Shown: piece after piece, positions 1-11,934 of the stretch
Position numbering within the stretch: the first letter of the stretch is position 1
Layout: each line of letters begins with the position of its first letter
From: a virus
Lineage: Duplodnaviria > Heunggongvirae > Uroviricota > Caudoviricetes
IMG/VR virus record: IMGVR_UViG_3300042293_000433
Length of the DNA: 14,350 bases
Strand: one strand, 5' to 3'
The notes under the pieces: model-generated
What the model saw: the letters and a program-made list of their open reading frames with translations, nothing else
Told to the model about the DNA's origin: nothing
Databases searched by the model: none
Made by a program: the position numbers and the translations under genes

Positions 1-1012
1 TTATTGCTCTCAATGTATTAGTTGTTACACCCCATACATTGTTTACATATGTGTTTGCTTTTGCTGAAAATTTTGTTTCATCTACATTACCACCAAAGTC
101 AAAATTGAATCGTGCAGTTAGGACTTCTCCGTTTGAGTGAGTTACTGAATTTGTATAAAACTCCGTAAAGGTTGCATCATCGGGGTTAGACCAAGTTCCA
201 TATTCAATTACATAAGCACAACTAAAATGATTTGGTAAGTCATTCCATTGAGAACCACCACCCCATTTAGTTACTGCGTAATCTTCATTACCACTATTAT
301 TTGGTTCACCACCTGCCCAATTATTATATTGACCAGGAATGTTTCCGTTTGTTTGTCCGTTATTTATTTTGATAAGAGTTCCCTTTTCAGGTCCTGCATC
401 TATCGTCCATCTAGCTTCCTCTACTTCATCGGTTAGTGCAAACCAAATATTACCTTGAGGAACATTATTAAAAATAAAAGCATCTTCATCGGCAGAAGTG
501 ATTGTTACTAAATATCCGGTCTGTCCTTTGAATGTAGTTAATAACGATGCTGCTCTTGCATTTGTGTAAGTTGCACCGGTTGTTATTGGTCTATAAAAGT
601 GTCCATTTACTCCATTGTAATAATATCCCGTTGGATTTATAGTTGTGGCTACTGATAAAGCAATATTACCCCTTACTGAACCTGTATTTACTTTTAGGGA
701 TGCTAATGCCGTATTAATATCAGCCATCGTTCCTGTAACCACTAATCGTGTTTTGTTACCACTTAAAGTGAATCCACTTGCGGCAGTTAAACCCGTTGTT
801 GTGTTTAATACGAATGTTGTACCTGATGGTGGATTAACTAAACTGATTGATGCTAATAGTGTTGCAGTAGAACTAAATCCACTCAATACAAATCCACTTG
901 CATCTTGTCCGGTAGTAGATTGTAAAAAAGATTTAGAGTCCGGAGCAGATACACTCTGTCCGAACCCTAAAAATGATATTAAAAGAAATAATGTAACTAA
1001 TAGATGTTTCAT
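1..1012 (-). CDS. Secreted protein with a C-type lectin domain (partial, runs off the left edge; missing from the ORF track)
   Basis: Manual translation from ATG at 1012 (TAATG overlap with the upstream stop) is open for 337 codons to the window edge: MKHLLVTLFLLISFLGFG|QSVSAPDS... (signal peptide), a Thr/Ser/Gly-rich beta region, then NGHFY...GYLVTITSADEDAFI...IWFALTDEVEEARW...YNNWAGGEPNNSGNEDY...QWNDLP...YVIEY. The EPN (299-307) and WND (239-247) motifs are canonical for C-type lectins. Confidence 0.88.
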   Translation of the reverse strand, partial: MKHLLVTLFLLISFLGFGQSVSAPDSKSFLQSTTGQDASGFVLSGFSSTATLLASISLVNPPSGTTFVLNTTTGLTAASGFTLSGNKTRLVVTGTMADINTALASLKVNTGSVRGNIALSVATTINPTGYYYNGVNGHFYRPITTGATYTNARAASLLTTFKGQTGYLVTITSADEDAFIFNNVPQGNIWFALTDEVEEARWTIDAGPEKGTLIKINNGQTNGNIPGQYNNWAGGEPNNSGNEDYAVTKWGGGSQWNDLPNHFSCAYVIEYGTWSNPDDATFTEFYTNSVTHSNGEVLTARFNFDFGGNVDETKFSAKANTYVNNVWGVTTNTLRAI

Positions 1013-2667
1013 TATTCTACTATTAGATTAATTTTTTTACCACTACCATCAACTGCGTCTGCTAGGACTGTATAGAATAAACCTGCCGTATTTGCTAATG
1101 TTTCTTTTGGAGTAAATGTTAATCTATATGGTGTACCTGTTTTAATTCTACCCGTTTTAACCTGGTCCATTGAACCAAATGTTAATCTGCCGGCGTTATT
1201 TGTTGAGAAATTTACAACATTTGCACCCGCATCAAAAGCAACATTATCAAAAGTTAATTTAGTATTATCATATTGTAAAATTACTTCTAAACCCGCCAAT
1301 CCTTCTTTTGTTAAAGTTCCTGTTAATACAACTTTACCATTTGTAATTGTAGAGTTCAAACTTAATTTTGCAGTTTCTATTACTGATGTGTAACTCATAT
1401 TTGCAACTGAAAATGATTTTATTACATTTTCATTACCGATTGAATTTGTATAATTACCCGTACTCACTCTACTTGCAATTGTGTCAGGATGAGATGAATG
1501 TGACCAATCCAAATCTCCACCCCATGCAAATACTGCATCTACCGCTTGTGTTGAGTTAGTTACATATACTCTATTTTTAGGAGTACCATCTAACCAACTT
1601 TGATTTAATAAACCACTATACCATCTTACCGATGTTGATGTTGATTTTGGTATCATTGCAATTGAGTCTGCATTTATACCCATTACATGTGCAAATATAT
1701 TATATGAATCACTTTCACTAAATGTACTTTTACCTATTGTAATTAAACCAACTTTCTTTTCTAATACAGGTCTTGTAAAGTATGTCCCTGCACCAGTAAT
1801 ATCAGTTTGTGAAACACCTAAAAACGCTTTATATGCATCCGATACGGTCACAATGTTATTCATCCAACTCTTTTGAAATGCAGCTCCTACAAATACACCC
1901 AAACTATCACCAACTTTAATACCTGATGTAAATGTTGCTTCACCACTTGCATCCAATACTTTTTGTTGAATTGGTTGTTGTGTCCAATCTATATCACCAC
2001 TACCATCTGATTTCAATTTCATCAATTGTATGCTATGGTCTGTGATTGAGTATCCAGATGGGAATAAAACTCTAACTTTGAATTGAGATGTATTACCACT
2101 TACATTTGATAAAGACATTGTACCTGGGTCAGTTGTAATTGGAGTAATGTATGCACTTGCTGCATCTACTGAATATGCTAAATCCAATTTATGTATGTTG
2201 GTATATTCACCCAAATCTTTGATTACATATTTTTGAGTTGCAATATCTCCGTTGATTGATGCATCGGTTCTTTGTATAGTCAATTGTCCTACATTCCAAT
2301 CCGAATTAGCTGTGTAAGACCAAGGAGATGCTAGATATTGTGCATATAAATTTGTAGCAATTATGTTATTTGCGGTACTTGCTGTAAATCTATAAGATGT
2401 CCAACCGGTATAATATGTTTGAACCGATGTTCCTTGTGAGAATGTGGTTGAAACATATGCCAATGCTTTATTGTTGAATTGATATCTCAACCAAAAATAT
2501 CTTGGTGTAGTTGTACCTCTTGCAACTGTATATTTTACTGAAATTGTGTCACCAACCTTTAAACCTGTTGTAGGTGTTACTGATTGGTTGATTGTTAATT
2601 GTGCGTTTACTGTCAATGTTAATAGGGATAGTATAATTATCCCTAACGTCATAAAGAATTTCTTCAT
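1012..2667 (-). CDS. Secreted 551-aa beta-rich protein with putative cohesin-like domains and a degenerate dockerin-like segment
   Basis: The track ORF starts at TTG 2682, but ATG at 2667, 1 nt after the upstream stop, gives a clean signal peptide MKKFFMTLGIIILSLLTLTVNA|Q. The C-terminal GLAGLEVILQYDNTKLTF...GRLTFGSMD...GTPYRLTF and N-terminal FWLRYQFNNKALAYVS segments resemble cohesin beta-sandwiches. The paired VTVSDAYKAF / FSESDSYNIF helices resemble dockerin repeats. The CDS is secure; the domain calls are pattern-level. Confidence 0.7.
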   Translation of the reverse strand: MKKFFMTLGIIILSLLTLTVNAQLTINQSVTPTTGLKVGDTISVKYTVARGTTTPRYFWLRYQFNNKALAYVSTTFSQGTSVQTYYTGWTSYRFTASTANNIIATNLYAQYLASPWSYTANSDWNVGQLTIQRTDASINGDIATQKYVIKDLGEYTNIHKLDLAYSVDAASAYITPITTDPGTMSLSNVSGNTSQFKVRVLFPSGYSITDHSIQLMKLKSDGSGDIDWTQQPIQQKVLDASGEATFTSGIKVGDSLGVFVGAAFQKSWMNNIVTVSDAYKAFLGVSQTDITGAGTYFTRPVLEKKVGLITIGKSTFSESDSYNIFAHVMGINADSIAMIPKSTSTSVRWYSGLLNQSWLDGTPKNRVYVTNSTQAVDAVFAWGGDLDWSHSSHPDTIASRVSTGNYTNSIGNENVIKSFSVANMSYTSVIETAKLSLNSTITNGKVVLTGTLTKEGLAGLEVILQYDNTKLTFDNVAFDAGANVVNFSTNNAGRLTFGSMDQVKTGRIKTGTPYRLTFTPKETLANTAGLFYTVLADAVDGSGKKINLIVE

Positions 2668-2668
2668 T

Positions 2669-3322
2669 TTATTTTTCCTCAAATAGTTTGGTGATTAGTT
2701 TGTCACAACCTTTTTTAAGTGCATTACTTAAACTTGTTTGATTAAAACCACCACCTTCACCGATAATCAATGTACTCATTGATATTTCTGAGGAGGACTC
2801 TTCTACTATAACTACTTTGTCTTTCTTTCCTTCGGATTTAAGAATGCCACGTAAACGAATTACAACTTCTTCTTCTCCACTATGAAAAACCGATATGTTC
2901 TTTTTTGTTGTAAGAACATCTAAAAATATAATTTGAACTGATACTTTGTTTGGTGCTACCGAAGATAGATTATATCCTTTATCTTGTAGATATTCTTCTA
3001 AAATATTCTTAACACCAAATTCTAATTTACGATTTCCTGCTAACTTACCGATTTTTACTTCGTTTGTTACTGATTCAATTGTTACTTGCTTATCGGCATC
3101 ATACCAAATGTTTTCAGGTGAATTTTTGAATGTACCGTCAATTCTCCATTCAATCCAATTTGCAACATCTCTTGTTATTTCAGTTTTACCTGCTAATTCC
3201 AAGTAGGTCATAGTAGCTGTGAATAACAACGCACATACAACCCATACAAGCGCTAGACTTATAAATCCTAGCGCGATTTTTTCGCCAATAGTTTGGCTTA
3301 AGTTTAATAACTTCGCTTTCAT
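2669..3322 (-). CDS. Membrane-anchored protein, possible CsgG/LptE/TolB-N-like alpha/beta domain
   Basis: 217-aa ORF with a hydrophobic segment (IALGFISLALVWVVCALLFTA). The C-terminal domain has a helix (LEFGVKNILEEYLQDKGY), several beta strands and a closing helix (TSLSNALKKGCDKLI), the layout of that fold class. The fold call is inference. Confidence 0.55.
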   Translation of the reverse strand: MKAKLLNLSQTIGEKIALGFISLALVWVVCALLFTATMTYLELAGKTEITRDVANWIEWRIDGTFKNSPENIWYDADKQVTIESVTNEVKIGKLAGNRKLEFGVKNILEEYLQDKGYNLSSVAPNKVSVQIIFLDVLTTKKNISVFHSGEEEVVIRLRGILKSEGKKDKVVIVEESSSEISMSTLIIGEGGGFNQTSLSNALKKGCDKLITKLFEEK

Positions 3323-3368
3323 ATATTTACCCCTTTATGCTAATAAATATATAAAAGTCTCGTCTAAA

Positions 3369-3854
3369 CTAAATTTTTAATTTTAGTGAGGTTATTAATT
3401 TTTTATCAATACCATATTTTTCACACATACCTTTAATTTGCTCTTTACCTTCTTTGGTTGTGTATAGAATATCTAAGTATTCATTTGCGTGCTTTGTAGA
3501 GCAAGTATATTCTTTAACTACTAATTCAACTACCCAATCTTCATAATCATTTGCTCTCTTACCTTTAATATATTTTAGATAATACTTCTTTGGTGGAATC
3601 ATATCACTAAAGAATTTATAAAAATATTCATTAGGTAGTGATTGAACATATGGTTGTACTTCTGCTATCCACTCTATCCAATCAGGATTCATAGATATAT
3701 ACCTTTGTATAATAAAATTACCAAAGGTCTTTTTATCATCATCAGAAATTTTCTTCCAATATTGTGGGTCTTGATACTCAGTCACAGCAGAGATATGGTC
3801 GAACAAACCTAATCTCTTTACTTCTTTATCCGGATTTTTTTTAATTTTTGTCAT
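3369..3854 (-). CDS. Clamp loader small subunit, T4 gp62-like
   Basis: 161 aa. F-I-I-Q-R-Y-I-S-M...LPNEYFYKFF...IPPKKYYLKYIK...VKEY...ANEYLDIL parallels gp62 (FMVENALSQ...[20 protein letters not shown]...AINYKSIL). It lies close to a clamp-loader ATPase. Confidence 0.75.
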   Translation of the reverse strand: MTKIKKNPDKEVKRLGLFDHISAVTEYQDPQYWKKISDDDKKTFGNFIIQRYISMNPDWIEWIAEVQPYVQSLPNEYFYKFFSDMIPPKKYYLKYIKGKRANDYEDWVVELVVKEYTCSTKHANEYLDILYTTKEGKEQIKGMCEKYGIDKKLITSLKLKI

Positions 3855-4095
3855 CTTCGGGTCTTAGTTCTTTTGGTAATAGGTCTTCAAACACTTCACC
3901 ACATTCAATACATAGATAAATTTCAACAGGAGTGATTTCTGCTTTACCGGTCGAACTTGCTAATGCACTTGATTTTCTAAAGTGTAATCCTGGTGAGAAA
4001 AATTGTCCGCCACATTTGCATTCCATTGCAGTTGTTTTACTTAAATCCGGACCTGCCGAACTTTGTCCTAAATTACTTAAATCCATTGGTTGCAT
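3841..4095 (-). CDS. Small putative Zn-finger/Zn-ribbon protein
   Basis: 84 aa with C26-x-C28 and C62-x-x-C65 (ECKCG...LCIECG). It is packed in-line between GroES and the gp62-like gene. Confidence 0.7.
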   Translation of the reverse strand: MQPMDLSNLGQSSAGPDLSKTTAMECKCGGQFFSPGLHFRKSSALASSTGKAEITPVEIYLCIECGEVFEDLLPKELRPEDDKN

Positions 4096-4106
4096 AACTA
4101 TTTATT

Positions 4107-4415
4107 TTATCTGATTACCATTAATAAATCCATTTCTCTACATAAGAAATAATCTTTATCTCCTAATTTAATTTTTTGTACACTCATTTCACCCATTGGT
4201 AATAATACTTTATCACCTGGTTTTACTGTCATTGGAATTTTAGCCCCACTATGTGTGTAAACACCATCTCCGGTTGAAACTACAACTGCTATTTTATTAT
4301 CACCCGTCTTAACTGAATCTGGGATAATTATTCCACCAATTGTTTTTTCTTTTGATTCAATTGTTACTAATACTCTGTCGCCTAACGGCTTTGCTAATTC
4401 AAAATTCTCTGTCAT
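4107..4415 (-). CDS. groES: Co-chaperonin GroES (Cpn10)
   Basis: KPLGDRVLV, mobile loop KTIGGIIIPD, VVSTGDG, PMTVKPGDKVL and a C-terminal RE.DLL match Cpn10 signatures; 102 aa. Confidence 0.93.
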   Translation of the reverse strand: MTENFELAKPLGDRVLVTIESKEKTIGGIIIPDSVKTGDNKIAVVVSTGDGVYTHSGAKIPMTVKPGDKVLLPMGEMSVQKIKLGDKDYFLCREMDLLMVIR

Positions 4416-4420
4416 AATGT

Positions 4421-5368
4421 TTATTTTATAATGTTAATAATTGCGATGATTGTTGCCATAAAACATATTTCTTTATCTATTACTAAGGCATCTCTAAATT
4501 GTCCTTGTGCTAATTCTAAGATTACATTTGCAGTATTACCCGCTGCATAATCATCTAATCTTTCATATAGTGCCGTATAAAGTTCTGCAAAATCATTCAC
4601 TTTATTATCACCCACTATTTGTCTAATCTGCATATATGCGTTTCTCTTTTCTTCACCACTCGCTAATAAATCTACAATCTTATTTTTAAAATCAGCTTGT
4701 AAGATTGTTTGTTTATCTACCTTTAACTCACCTTTAGATGATTGTAGTTGGCAGGTATTCATAACCCTTCTAATATCAGGATAGAAACTACTAATAATAT
4801 CTGCTACATCTTTAACATCATATCTAATACCTTCTTTATTTAAGATTTCCGTAACATGAACTGCTACTTCTTTCTTTGATGGTGGATTTACTGCAAAAGT
4901 TTGACAACGCGATAAAATTGGTTCGATAATTTTTTCATGATAGTTACAGGTTAAGATAAAACGAGTATGCCTACTGAATGTTTCCATTAAATTACGAAGG
5001 ATTGCCTGTGCATTTGGTGTCATATAATCAAACTCATCTAATATGATAATTTTGAATCCTTTGAACCCTGCTCCACTTGCAAAGTTTTTTACCTTATTTC
5101 TTACCGTCTCAACATTGTTCTCATCTGATGCATTGATTATCATCATATCACATTCAATTGTTTGTGCTATGATTTTAGCCAATGTAGTTTTGCCTGTCCC
5201 AGCTTTACCATATAAAAGTAAATGCGGAACATCATTATTATCTAAATAGGATTGTACTTTCTCTTTAAGAAGGTCATTACCTATATAATCTTTTAGTGTT
5301 TGTGGTCTATATTTTTCTACCCACAATGTGTTTTCCGTTTTTACGGATTCTTTTTCAAAAAAGCTCAT
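4421..5368 (-). CDS. Clamp loader AAA+ ATPase (T4 gp44 / RFC small-subunit-like)
   Basis: LWVEKYRP RFC box, Walker A GKAGTGKT, INASD, Walker B IILDEFD, AQAILR and the SRC arginine-finger motif (LSRC); 315 aa. Confidence 0.95.
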   Translation of the reverse strand: MSFFEKESVKTENTLWVEKYRPQTLKDYIGNDLLKEKVQSYLDNNDVPHLLLYGKAGTGKTTLAKIIAQTIECDMMIINASDENNVETVRNKVKNFASGAGFKGFKIIILDEFDYMTPNAQAILRNLMETFSRHTRFILTCNYHEKIIEPILSRCQTFAVNPPSKKEVAVHVTEILNKEGIRYDVKDVADIISSFYPDIRRVMNTCQLQSSKGELKVDKQTILQADFKNKIVDLLASGEEKRNAYMQIRQIVGDNKVNDFAELYTALYERLDDYAAGNTANVILELAQGQFRDALVIDKEICFMATIIAIINIIK

Positions 5369-6591
5369 TATTTAAAATTTATTTTGTAATCGTTTATTAT
5401 ATTGTCTAAGATACTATTTTCTTCGATATAATCCAAACATTTTTGTCTATTTGTTTCTGCTGCTATTGAACATTTATCTAACATTACATCATATTCATCT
5501 TGTTTCATTTCTGAAATACGGATTATATTCTTTGTTAAATTTCTAACTATAAAATCATGATTTTCCCAAATCTCATCATAATTTATACCTAATTCGGTTT
5601 CATATGTTTCAAATCCAAAGTGTATTAAAAAATCATATGCCACCTTACTACAAATTATAAATGGTTTACCTATCAATAAATTATCAATTGTTTTTTCAGT
5701 AATATTACACCATTCTTTTTCACTCAATCTATATAATCCATTTTGATTAGATTCAAACATAATTTGTATATCGGATGAAAATGTTACATCTATTAGTTTC
5801 ATTGCCCCAATATGTTCTTGTTGACCGGCGACTAATGTAGTAGTTGGTGCTAAACTTTGCTTTAATCTATCTAATAACTTAAATTCATTTTTGTATTGGT
5901 CTAACTTATCTGCGTTATTATATTTTGTTGCAAATTCATACAACTGCTCCATTCTATTTACATAGTAATCGTTTACTCTAAGATTAATATTATCCTTTTG
6001 ATAATTTTGTAATACTTTTAACAACTCAACGCGTTCATCTTTTTGAGGAAAGTTTCTAACTGATAAATCTAATCTATATTCTTTTTTAGTGTTCCTAAAA
6101 ATTTCATTACATTGATAATGCTGTAATACAATTCTATTTGCTATAAATTTTCTTAATATAAATCCAAAATCAAAAAGTTTATTAGGTTCTACAATTCTTA
6201 GTGTAGTGTAAAATATACAATTAGGATTACTTCTAATATAATCTATATTATCAAAAATATTATATGGTTCTAAATTCGCGGTATCGAATATATAGTATTT
6301 ATTATTTGGATTATTTTTAATTGCTTCTGCAATTGTAGATTGTAATCCCATCAAATTTGTAGGAATAATATGATAACCAGGGTCTGATACTAATTCAAAC
6401 TCTCTATCATGAATGAAAGCACTATCTATAAAAAACTCACGTTGTTCGGTATGTAAGTTTTTTCTTAGTTCATCTCCAATTTCATGTGATGGTTCTAATA
6501 CTAAAAATCTATAATATAAATCCCACCATTTTGTATTATAAAATAATGCTCTATTAGTTGCACTATCAAATGGACCATGTAAATAAATCAT
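5368..6591 (-). CDS. Uncharacterised 407-aa protein, possible GT10-like (GT-B) glycosyltransferase
   Basis: The track start 6624 lies inside dUTPase, so ATG 6591 (1 nt after the dUTPase stop) is more likely. The C-terminal IMFES...ITEKTIDNLLIGKPFII resembles the GT10 motif FENS...TEK..NAL..G..P. The CDS is secure; the function is tentative. Confidence 0.5.
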   Translation of the reverse strand: MIYLHGPFDSATNRALFYNTKWWDLYYRFLVLEPSHEIGDELRKNLHTEQREFFIDSAFIHDREFELVSDPGYHIIPTNLMGLQSTIAEAIKNNPNNKYYIFDTANLEPYNIFDNIDYIRSNPNCIFYTTLRIVEPNKLFDFGFILRKFIANRIVLQHYQCNEIFRNTKKEYRLDLSVRNFPQKDERVELLKVLQNYQKDNINLRVNDYYVNRMEQLYEFATKYNNADKLDQYKNEFKLLDRLKQSLAPTTTLVAGQQEHIGAMKLIDVTFSSDIQIMFESNQNGLYRLSEKEWCNITEKTIDNLLIGKPFIICSKVAYDFLIHFGFETYETELGINYDEIWENHDFIVRNLTKNIIRISEMKQDEYDVMLDKCSIAAETNRQKCLDYIEENSILDNIINDYKINFK

Positions 6592-6592
6592 A

Positions 6593-7027
6593 TTATTTTC
6601 CTGTTGAACCGAATCCACCTTCACCTCTTAGTGTATCGGATAATTCTTTTACTTCTAAAAATTGTACTGGTGGATGTGGTATAATCATAAGTTGACAAAC
6701 TCTATCACCAACTTTATAATCATTTTTTTGATTTTCAATTGTTGTTATAATTTTGTTGAATGTGGCTTGCAACTCACCTCTATATCCACTATCAATTACC
6801 CCAACTGAATTACTTAATTGCAATCTAGTTTTTCTAATTGATGAACGAGGAAATACTAATCCTACAAATCCTTCGGGTATTTCCAATGCAACGCCCAATC
6901 CATATGTTATTTGAGTATATGTTTCTGATATAACCGATGTTGCTACTAAATCCATTCCAGCATCACCTTCTTTTGCATAGGTTGGTATTACTGCGTTTTC
7001 ATTTAATTTTTTAATTCGTACTTTCAT
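6593..7027 (-). CDS. dut: Trimeric dUTPase
   Basis: All five motifs are present: AGMDL, PRSS, GVIDSGYRGE, GDRVCQL and RGEGGFGSTG; 144 aa. Confidence 0.97.
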   Translation of the reverse strand: MKVRIKKLNENAVIPTYAKEGDAGMDLVATSVISETYTQITYGLGVALEIPEGFVGLVFPRSSIRKTRLQLSNSVGVIDSGYRGELQATFNKIITTIENQKNDYKVGDRVCQLMIIPHPPVQFLEVKELSDTLRGEGGFGSTGK

Positions 7028-9336: not shown

Positions 9337-9368
9337 TAAAGATACGACTTTTATTCCATTCTACCAAA
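9337..9368 (-). promoter_or_regulatory. Bacteroidota-type primary-sigma promoter for the clamp gene
   Basis: Minus strand TTTG (9368-9365), 20-nt spacer, TATCTTTA (9344-9337). This matches the Bacteroidota -33/-7 consensus TTTG-N19-21-TAnnTTTG with one mismatch, and the same element recurs upstream of PolB. Confidence 0.7.
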
Positions 9369-11903: not shown

Positions 11904-11934
11904 TAAAGATACAACAAATTATCTTAACTACAAA
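11904..11934 (-). promoter_or_regulatory. Bacteroidota-type primary-sigma promoter for the polymerase gene
   Basis: Minus strand TTTG (11934-11931), 19-nt spacer, TATCTTTA (11911-11904). The -7 octamer is identical to the one before the clamp gene. Confidence 0.7.

Follow-up and report, generated by a model that had tools for sequence, protein, structure and literature searches.

Why should a tailed phage carry, directly behind the genes that replicate its DNA, a set of genes whose products seem destined for the envelope of its host? This question is raised by a window of 14,350 nt (positions 56187-70536) within a 126-kb IMG/VR virus contig (G000:C1, record IMGVR_UViG_3300042293_000433; CheckV completeness 65%), in which all genes lie on the minus strand and three of them, here called genes 1, 2 and 3, follow each other with hardly any spacing. 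An earlier note on this DNA had described the trio as an exported module consisting of a CsgG/HfaB-like membrane anchor or channel, a cohesin-dockerin-like scaffold and a C-type lectin, placed right after the replication block. The arrangement itself is as described: the clamp-loader genes are located directly upstream of gene 1, genes 1 and 2 are separated by a 1-nt gap (TAA-A-ATG), and genes 2 and 3 overlap in TAATG. Taken as a whole, our analysis tentatively suggests that the trio is the start of a conserved phage operon which would equip the host envelope with a glycan-binding complex, with receptor masking as its favoured function; the formation of the complex, its surface location and its biological role are what we infer from the observations below.

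Export signals of the three gene products

Export signals were read by rules (hydropathy, charge, and n-h-c features), and the one membrane anchor and two Sec signal peptides claimed previously were all recovered. Gene 1 possesses a single hydrophobic span (residues 16-38) within a stretch modelled by AlphaFold2 (AF2) as a confident helix (residues 2-43), and the flanks of the span carry a net charge of +2 before and -1 after it, for which reason an N-in/C-out topology is predicted. Genes 2 and 3 begin with signal peptides of classical n-h-c layout that end in TVNA and GFG, respectively, each being followed by Q. Such a Q at +1 is usual in Bacteroidota signal peptides, and it recurs in other signal peptides of the exported block to which the trio belongs. 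Furthermore, the export signals of all three genes are conserved in every aligned orthologue, that of gene 3 across 20 orthologues. With these signals kept throughout and any PHROG structural match absent, the products appear exported rather than virion-type, and their delivery to the host envelope is very probable.

The final destination of the gene 2 and 3 products is less certain, with the outer surface being somewhat favoured over the periplasm. In two relatives the cohesin component is predicted, from its sequence, to be cargo of the type IX secretion system (T9SS) and thus to be destined for the cell surface. One is gp015 of the cultured Flavobacterium phage vB_FspM_immuto (NC_055915, 160 kb, host Flavobacterium sp. 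LMO8; hereafter immuto), in which Cohesin (36.7 bits) and the T9SS sorting domain Por_Secre_tail (34.6 bits, cut-off 27) both score above their cut-offs; the other is the 638-aa gene 2 homologue of a compact related locus (L058), which ends in Por_Secre_tail (26.2 bits, E 9.8e-6). In addition, Cys is depleted in gene 2: all 23 orthologues contain 0-1 Cys in ~550 residues (P = 2.4e-4 relative to the rate across the genome), which fits proteins crossing the outer membrane unfolded.

Fold families of the trio and a relative of CsgG/HfaB

One part of the previous description that had to be given up is the CsgG/HfaB-like nature of the 217-aa product of gene 1. Pfam CsgG (PF03783) found no match at E<=1 in gene 1 or in the whole contig, hhalign of the gene 1 family against E. 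coli CsgG returned a probability of 0.1, and the lipobox [LVI][ASTVI][GAS]C is absent. Judged by its model, gene 1 is a bitopic inner-membrane protein with a periplasmic domain of the LptE/PelC/YajG type. The AF2 model (predicted local distance difference test score, pLDDT, 69.7) comprises a long N-terminal helix and then a b-a-b-b-b-a domain, whose conserved motifs in the family alignment are GxLxGNxxLxFGVKNILEE and GGxFNQ..ALKK. Its best PDB matches in Foldseek were LptE (Cj1090c at a target TM-score of 0.70, and LptDE complexes), PelC, HpaA, and FlgT, the matches to LptE/Cj1090c and PelC having a Foldseek probability of 1.0, target TM-scores of 0.55-0.70, and a sequence identity of 9-16%; among AFDB clusters, the names retrieved were LptE, LpoB, CsgG, DUF4136, DUF4410, and DUF4468. 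The alpha/beta core is shared with the LptE, PelC, LpoB, and CsgG clusters at superfamily level only (Foldseek probability 1.0), and the two loops modelled with low confidence (residues 140-149 and 177-192) look, as far as we infer from the model, too short to form transmembrane (TM) beta-hairpins of the CsgG type. Gene 1 is therefore a member of the LptE/PelC/CsgG fold group that stands outside the CsgG/HfaB family.

Two closer assignments within this fold group were rejected. As a member of YajG/Lipoprotein_16 (PF03923), gene 1 scores 19.7 bits, under the cut-off of 25, and has no lipobox, so that it is a distant relative at best; the PF03923 flag is carried by some of its orthologues in precomputed tables and by 14-30% of the members of its Atlas clusters. 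LptE (PF04390) is the best structural match, yet there is neither a sequence match nor a lipobox, nor an LptD-like partner on the contig. In terms of sequence the gene 1 family is virus-specific, with 3755 metagenome homologues (none named, on contigs of up to ~250 kb), and clustering at 50% leaves 153 representatives. The Atlas clusters to which it belongs are viral, and a search of genome contigs yielded no cellular relative. A fold search of BFVD with the gene 1 model gave no significant match. Many relatives measure 155-170 aa and have a cleavable signal peptide of the signal peptidase I type in place of the TM helix, and because one substitutes for the other, the domain is predicted to be periplasmic in both forms. 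A complex prediction combining gene 2 (residues 24-551) with the gene 1 domain (residues 70-217) scored 0.00, which speaks neither for nor against binding.

By its sequence, the likely CsgG/HfaB relative is not gene 1 but a 239-aa protein encoded further along the same strand. This protein has 86% mean column identity and at least 6122 homologues, and its nearest named Atlas clusters are CsgG/HfaB (0.93-0.94). One homologue, on a chromosome contig of an Ignavibacteriales metagenome-assembled genome (MAG), is a lipoprotein (36.6% identity, E 5e-45) that reaches 28.6 bits with Pfam CsgG, above the cut-off of 20.8. Direct comparisons of the 239-aa protein with Pfam CsgG and, by hhalign, with E. 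coli CsgG were not significant, a PDB sequence search with its profile and with the bacterial homologue gave no match, and a large homologue search on the family returned near-identical, unnamed proteins only. Between gene 1 and the 239-aa protein BLASTP found nothing, and hhalign of the two families aligned only a C-terminal KFNQ..KKA motif (probability 27). In the Ignavibacteriales MAG, the CsgG-family lipoprotein is encoded by the first gene of an operon (L065:10001-17437) whose further products are a 204-aa protein with a signal peptide, an 825-aa protein resembling transglutaminases, and a CHASE2 adenylate/guanylate cyclase; this operon may represent the cellular context of the 239-aa family.

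Genes 2 and 3 are, according to their family profiles, paralogues over their C-terminal two thirds (gene 2 residues 220-548 against gene 3 residues 420-764, hhalign probability 99.6, E 1.7e-24). Common to both are a beta-sandwich, a segment resembling a dockerin, the motif W(G/K)GD..SHS, and a cohesin-like sandwich at the C-terminus; in gene 3, which is complete on the parent contig (764 aa, genome 54904-57198), the beta-sandwich, the Ca-type dockerin-like EF-hand, and the C-terminal cohesin lie beyond the window (genome 54904-56186). The cohesin and dockerin-like modules of the earlier note are indeed present, the cohesin in gene 2 as a fold and in gene 3 through Pfam Cohesin, which is found in 10 of 20 orthologues (best E 2.6e-5). 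On the evidence of models and alignments, gene 2 and the gene 3 C-terminus carry the cohesin fold: Foldseek matched gene 2 to cohesins (target TM-scores of 0.6-0.66, 16-26% identity) and also to scaffoldins, and its C-terminal sandwich aligns to the cohesin-positive C-terminus of gene 3 as well as to the cohesin region of the relative in L058. The window's own copies of genes 2 and 3 remain under Pfam reporting for Cohesin; several of the 3326 metagenome homologues of gene 2, none of which is named, are flagged PF00963 Cohesin, and a PDB sequence search with the gene 2 profile produced no match. A dockerin consists of two duplicated 22-residue segments, each with an EF-hand Ca loop and a helix. 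In gene 3 the dockerin-like segment covers about residues 490-550. The gene 3 family displays a single canonical loop, DVDGNGxFNEAD, then xxLLQHLTG, preceded by a degenerate repeat, and the dockerin-like segment of gene 2 is homologous to this EF-hand segment with its Ca ligands lost. Whether the gene 2 and 3 products assemble by contacts of the cohesin-dockerin type is, in our estimation, evenly balanced.

The C-type lectin attributed to gene 3 was corroborated by its intact EPN and WND motifs, which align to those of CEL-I, mincle, and mannose-binding protein and are kept in the lectin-bearing orthologues. A phmmer search of PDB with the lectin domain retrieved CEL-I (E 7.8e-6), mincle, and mannose-binding protein. 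Pfam Lectin_C (PF00059) assigns this copy 18.6-20.3 bits, below the cut-off of 22.6, and the immuto homologue 57 bits; the gene 3 domain is 39% identical to the annotated lectin of that phage. The disulfide cysteines usual for C-type lectin domains are absent, as Cys occurs only once in the 764 residues, at position 265. Across the 20 gene 3 orthologues, Pfam detects Lectin_C in 12 (best E 9e-7), PA14 in six (7e-13), LCCL in three (1e-11), and Dockerin_1 in two (3e-4), and because Lectin_C, PA14, and LCCL vary among them, the conserved body of gene 3 carries an exchangeable, predicted glycan-binding head. Searches of PHROGs with the trio and its neighbours and of NCBIfam with the trio gave nothing usable. 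In blastn and tblastn searches of a phage collection with the region, gene 1, and gene 2, no match was obtained; the lectin domain alone matched immuto. When gp014 and gp015 of that phage were compared with the gene 2 profile, nothing significant was seen outside the signal peptide and a short piece of the cohesin.

The wider envelope cassette and its variation

Although the three coupled genes were confirmed, a three-gene module proved too narrow a description, as the trio heads a cassette of 9-14 genes. Behind gene 3, the same strand goes on with ~11 more genes, mostly exported (genome 45198-54890), and the cassette ends at a PD-(D/E)XK nuclease gene; ~12 of the ~15 signal-peptide or lipoprotein open reading frames (ORFs) of the contig fall in one 14-kb block. 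Gene 1 relatives with 51-100% identity are carried by 53 IMG/VR contigs, in which the order is conserved (by length in aa: 217, ~550, 630-870, [~100], [~297], ~114, ~123, ~103-121, [~200], ~85, [GT2, phosphoesterase], ~239, ..., ~450-530). In distant contigs the upstream neighbours are no longer clamp-loader genes, and the order of the block is kept nonetheless. This synteny in 53 viral contigs identifies the cassette as made of phage genes, and the possibility of a mis-assembled host fragment is contradicted by identical flanks together with the synteny. The most compact form (L058), seen on short contigs, contains a holin-like gene, a gene 1 relative with a signal peptide, a gene 2-like gene, a 117-aa homologue, and a small TM protein; a Flavobacterium-MAG contig (L063) adds a 239-aa homologue, and there an endolysin gene (PG_binding_1 + GH19) abuts the block. 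Neither a Gp23 capsid gene nor an endolysin homologue was found on the contig of the window, which is uninformative at 65% completeness. Twelve further lake or freshwater metagenome studies, beyond two possible source samples, hold at least 71% of the window's sampled words; the phage is thus a freshwater (lake water) one, its window being nearly complete in many independent lake studies.

The same six component types occur in immuto gp013-gp019 in a different order (Table 1), where they adjoin replication and nucleotide-metabolism genes as the trio here adjoins replication genes. In that phage the lectin and the cohesin reside on separate, shorter proteins, and in the relative of gene 1 the TM helix is replaced by a cleavable signal peptide. 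The annotation of gp013-gp019 does not go beyond lectin C-type domain-containing, cohesin domain-containing, and hypothetical proteins.

Variation within the cassette is concentrated in genes 2 and 3. Compared with two contigs whose replication genes are 100% nucleotide-identical to those of the window (L011 and L007), gene 1 is 94-96% identical, and from about window position 2500 identity drops to 70-78% through genes 2 and 3, amounting to a fall from 100% to ~72% within 2 kb. A third contig (L012) keeps the window's allele at 88-98%, and the mosaic boundary is sharp (window 1-2500 versus 2500-5814). Such swapping of alleles and heads is what would be expected of proteins facing a variable ligand, for instance strain-specific surface glycans.

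Table 1. Features of the trio, of the downstream cassette and of the corresponding immuto genes (window coordinates unless another sequence is named)
Feature	Coordinates	Strand	Basis or description
Gene 1 (P0001)	3322..2669	minus	ATG start, 217 aa; ORF and translation
Predicted signal-anchor TM helix, gene 1 residues 16-38	3209..3277	minus	hydropathy, charge bias, AF2 helix
Predicted alpha/beta domain, gene 1 residues 76-215	2678..3097	minus	family alignment, AF2, Foldseek
Gene 2 (P0002)	2667..1012	minus	551 aa counted from ATG, Cys-free; translation
Predicted signal peptide, gene 2 residues 1-22, cleavage between VNA and Q	2602..2667	minus	sequence features
Degenerate dockerin-like segment, gene 2 (IVTVSDAYKAFLG ... 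FSESDSYNIFAHVMG)	1678..1854	minus	hhalign
C-terminal cohesin-like beta-sandwich, gene 2 residues ~430-551	1015..1380	minus	AF2 strands 432-550, fold matches
Gene 3, first 337 of 764 codons	1..1012	minus	adhesin-like; starts at 1012, runs past window edge
Predicted signal peptide, gene 3 residues 1-18, cleavage between GFG and Q	959..1012	minus	sequence features
C-type lectin domain, gene 3 residues 136-271	200..607	minus	Pfam, PDB sequence search
Lectin EPN, residues 236-238	299-307	minus	motif aligned to CEL-I, mincle
Lectin WND, residues 256-258	239-247	minus	motif aligned to CEL-I, mincle
Spacer of 46 nt, clamp-loader gene to gene 1	3323..3368	minus	promoter/terminator scan
86-aa protein, 7 Cys, no signal peptide	G000:C1:54630-54890 (L002:14630-14890)	minus	between gene 3 and 301-aa gene
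301-aa signal-peptide protein		minus	downstream cassette
Two paralogous small lipoproteins, 114 and 122 aa		minus	downstream cassette; 122-aa protein weakly Por_Secre_tail-like
117-aa bitopic protein and 87-aa two-TM protein	G000:C1:52349-53016 (L002:12349-13016)	minus	
TonB-dependent-receptor barrel (759 aa), lipoprotein (400 aa), FeoA-domain protein (78 aa)	G000:C1:47650-52294 (L002:7650-12294)	minus	
239-aa signal-peptide protein	genome 48005-48724	minus	~8 kb downstream, outside window
284-aa signal-peptide protein		minus	downstream cassette
533-aa exported protein	G000:C1:45198-46799 (L002:5198-6799)	minus	autotransporter-like layout
immuto gp013			C-type lectin, 57 bits
immuto gp014			signal-peptide protein
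immuto gp015			Cohesin + T9SS type A sorting domain
immuto gp016			homologue of 117-aa TM protein
immuto gp017			homologue of 239-aa protein, 53% identity, E 2e-83
immuto gp018			N-terminal domain common to 533-aa protein; barrel protein
immuto gp019			gene 1 family member, hhalign probability 94.8

Among the further members of the cassette, the 86-aa Cys-rich protein is found in some relatives only and could, by its sequence, be a zinc-ribbon-like cytoplasmic regulator. The 117-aa protein has a Pro/Gln-rich periplasmic tail ending in PKW, the 87-aa protein is holin-like with a charged tail, and both are kept even in the most compact cassette. The 759-aa receptor matches Plug + OMP_b-brl_3 (Pfam E 5e-26) and TIGR01782 of NCBIfam (E 2e-54); together with the 400-aa lipoprotein it looks like an accessory insertion, since among the loci examined the two occur only in G000 and L041. 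The 533-aa protein is composed of a small two-Cys N-terminal domain, a low-complexity linker of ~250 residues rich in Ala, Pro, Ser/Gly, and Glu/Lys, and a barrel-like part at the C-terminus, and the low-complexity DNA of its gene yields spurious overlapping ORFs. A GT2 glycosyltransferase is inserted in the cassette of relatives, and 429-aa and 467-aa ORFs that flank the cassette were read as glycosyltransferase-like without a domain search; the lectin might be linked to a glycan made by the phage.

Upstream of the trio, the replication set includes PolB (~50% identical to that of Microcystis phage Mel-JY01 and ~32% to those of T4-like cyanophages), a sliding-clamp-like gene, a gp44-like clamp loader, Cpn10, and a gp62-like clamp-loader subunit. 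Between the dUTPase and clamp-loader genes lies a 418-aa ORF (5368-6624, minus strand) without a Pfam match at E<=0.1. Scanning the surroundings of gene 1 for promoters and terminators revealed no full two-part promoter of the Bacteroidota type and, in the 46-nt spacer, no terminator, only a partial -7-like box, ATATATTTA, at 3344-3352; sigma-70-like matches were at chance level, and hence expression timing is not claimed. Full Bacteroidota-type two-part promoters (TTTG ... GTATCTTTA) are situated on the minus strand at 9337-9368 and 11904-11934, just upstream of the sliding-clamp-like gene and PolB, respectively, and the pattern occurs nine times in the window against 2.7 expected, never ahead of gene 1. 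Metatranscriptome libraries of four lake studies contain short contigs on genes 2 and 3, one contig being identical across the junction of genes 1 and 2 (2570-2825). As these runs were selected with the window itself, DNA carry-over is possible and uncovered bins are uninformative, the contigs are at most a weak hint of transcription.

Possible roles and relation to known systems

How could these parts act together? In the model that we tentatively favour, the trio would form the 5' end of an operon whose products go to the host envelope. Bacterial proteins of the LptE/PelC/YajG fold are located beneath or within barrels and rings of the outer membrane, and gene 1, anchored in the inner membrane, would place a domain of this type in the periplasm. 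The exported gene 2 and 3 proteins would join via contacts of the cohesin-dockerin type and so form a complex that binds glycans at the outer side of the envelope, with the gene 3 head serving as an exchangeable Ca-dependent sugar binder, here a C-type lectin and in relatives PA14 or PA14/LCCL. Gene 1, the 239-aa CsgG/HfaB-like protein, and the 533-aa autotransporter-like barrel might help to position the complex, a task which in relatives could instead be fulfilled by the T9SS-sorted cohesin. By occupying host surface glycans, the complex would exclude superinfecting phages and stop progeny from adsorbing to debris. Such receptor masking, by itself a doubtful role, is favoured because of the variable heads and alleles and because single-protein receptor maskers are known from other phages.

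A more far-reaching version, which we regard as improbable, is a self-contained secretion-and-display system that is independent of the host T9SS and built from a CsgG/HfaB-like ring, an LptE-fold adaptor, and an autotransporter-like barrel. The Cys-free cohesin/dockerin proteins would then be exported and assemble a lectin coat on the infected cell in the style of a cellulosome, the swappable head setting which surface glycan is masked or bound.

A number of observations weigh against the envelope complex as we picture it. The AF2 models are of moderate quality (the pLDDT of gene 2 is 63.4, with its dockerin-like region below 50, and that of gene 1 is no higher than given above). A canonical Ca loop is present once in gene 3 and not at all in gene 2, and Dockerin_1 was detected in just two of the 20 orthologues. 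The CsgG link of the 239-aa protein is transitive, because the direct tests fail, and a CsgG-type channel passes small unfolded curli subunits, not proteins of 55-80 kDa. In genes 2 and 3, searches with Pfam and NCBIfam revealed no T9SS sorting domain (Por_Secre_tail PF18962 / TIGR04183), and lipobox and barrel are absent as well, so that both products might remain periplasmic. Finally, the block includes holin-like and spanin-like small membrane proteins and is abutted by the endolysin in L063, and part of the cassette may serve lysis.

These points lead to the other roles that the cassette might fulfil. If the lectin complex did not mask receptors but glued infected cells to hosts, particles, or algal polysaccharide, released virions would find fresh hosts immediately. 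Glycan-binding heads that are exported and mounted on a scaffold of the cohesin type would suit such adhesion, PA14/LCCL variants are typical adhesin modules, and HfaB, after which the CsgG/HfaB family is named in part, acts for a holdfast anchor made of polysaccharide. For the csgG/csgF operon of pelagimyophages, adhesion has been proposed as well (PMC7029224). We nevertheless consider this role unlikely, given that the fast allele turnover in near-identical phages suits strain-specific host glycans better than generic particles, multivalency, fibre formation, and surface exposure all being putative. Less probable still is a periplasmic complex that disturbs host envelope biogenesis or prepares lysis, in which gene 1 would mimic lipoproteins of the LptE/PelC/LpoB type and target an outer-membrane machine of the host such as LptD, BAM, or the T9SS, the gene 2 and 3 products would be retained in the periplasm, with peptidoglycan or nascent glycans as their ligands, and the small neighbours would act like holins or spanins. 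The best fold matches of gene 1, namely LptE in LptDE complexes and PelC, agree with this, as do the want of a recognisable outer-membrane export signal in genes 2 and 3, the retention of the 87-aa and 117-aa proteins in L058, and the endolysin next to the L063 block. However, the cohesin protein of relatives is tagged for surface export by the T9SS, a swappable lectin/PA14 head and hypervariable alleles would be unexpected for the binding of conserved periplasmic polymers, and no endolysin was found on the contig, which is 65% complete.

Two further explanations find little room beside these. The 759-aa receptor, the 400-aa lipoprotein, and the FeoA-domain protein within the block recall a polysaccharide-utilisation locus, in which surface glycan binders would feed them with captured nutrients, and TonB-dependent receptors were reported in huge phages (bioRxiv 10.64898/2026.10.24.761521). 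Against this very unlikely role stand the restriction of receptor and lipoprotein to G000 and L041, whereas the lectin/cohesin core is present throughout the examined loci, and the lack of glycoside hydrolases in the block. That most relatives do without the receptor already suggests that the cassette works normally in its absence. That genes 2 and 3 encode receptor-binding or decoration proteins of the virion, their N-terminal hydrophobic stretches not being functional signals, is the least probable of all and to us hardly credible. Ig-like or cohesin-like sandwiches, lectin/PA14 heads, swapping, and hypervariability do also mark tail fibres and decoration proteins, but every orthologue has an n-h-c signal peptide with Q at +1, the genes sit among lipoproteins, barrels, and TM proteins beside replication genes, the T9SS sorting domains of relatives act on periplasmic cargo only, and PHROGs offered no structural match.

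With receptor masking by an envelope complex as the working model, the cassette can be compared to systems described so far. One of the two closest published precedents is found in T4-like pelagimyophages (HTVC008M group), which carry a curli-type (type VIII secretion) csgG/csgF operon of unknown function (Zaragoza-Solas et al. 2020, PMC7029224). In both cases, a T4-like phage harbours a block of exported envelope proteins with a CsgG-family member, here a candidate one, and the block occupies a variable region that separates the replication module from the structural one. However, the pelagimyophage operon encodes bona fide CsgG and CsgF, close to alphaproteobacterial ones, without cohesin, dockerin, or lectin, and its hosts are SAR11; here, a distant CsgG/HfaB-like protein that is not a lipoprotein occurs in phages of Bacteroidota hosts, and what marks the cassette is its protein of the LptE/YajG fold together with the lectin-cohesin paralogues. 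The other precedent comes from huge phages, in which outer-membrane beta-barrel proteins, TonB-dependent receptors, and candidates for sortase-based display are common; the study reporting them mentions no CsgG, LptE, cohesin, or lectin (bioRxiv 10.64898/2026.10.24.761521).

Our model is also reminiscent of cellulosomes (the scaffoldins of Clostridium, Acetivibrio, and Ruminococcus) and of non-cellulosomal cohesins, with which it shares cohesin folds, secretion, and exchangeable heads on modular proteins, and gene 3 has in addition an EF-hand Ca loop plus helix resembling those of dockerins; the immuto cohesin, fixed to the surface by its sorting domain, would resemble an anchoring scaffoldin. 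In contrast to cellulosomes, there are no enzymes, the cargo would be a lectin/PA14 binder, cohesin and dockerin-like parts are joined in one polypeptide with a single Ca loop in gene 3, and the whole, predicted from sequence and fold, belongs to a phage of a Gram-negative host. Gene 1 differs from LptE, PelC, YajG, LpoB, and CsgG in lacking a lipobox and in having an inner-membrane helix, or in being soluble in relatives. As with proteins for receptor masking or exclusion, such as Llp of T5, Cor, and Imm/Sp of T4, the products are phage-encoded, exported, and would act on the envelope of the infected cell. Those are single small proteins, and unlike them, and unlike the sortase-based modules of phages of Gram-positive hosts, the present one is a multi-protein lectin-cohesin cassette. 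Full-text literature searches turned up no description of this lectin-cohesin cassette. New here are the LptE-type fold of gene 1 with its TM and signal-peptide variants, the paralogy of genes 2 and 3, the mosaic boundary, the Cys depletion, and the bacterial CsgG-family homologue of the 239-aa protein.

The usual view is that phages alter the host surface with individual small proteins or with enzymes that modify glycans. The large Bacteroidota phages of lake water described here, an abundant lineage, keep a multi-gene exported set with a swappable sugar-binding protein. If this set masks receptors or makes cells stick, it would matter for co-infection, for the loss of progeny, and for aggregation among freshwater Bacteroidota, and would add a new layer to phage-host and phage-phage competition. 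If contacts of the predicted type hold the proteins together, this would be the first cohesin-dockerin-type assembly used by a virus, and if the display system sketched above were true, a novel type of surface organelle, built by the phage and subject to arms-race selection. Since immuto and its host are in culture, the question is directly testable.

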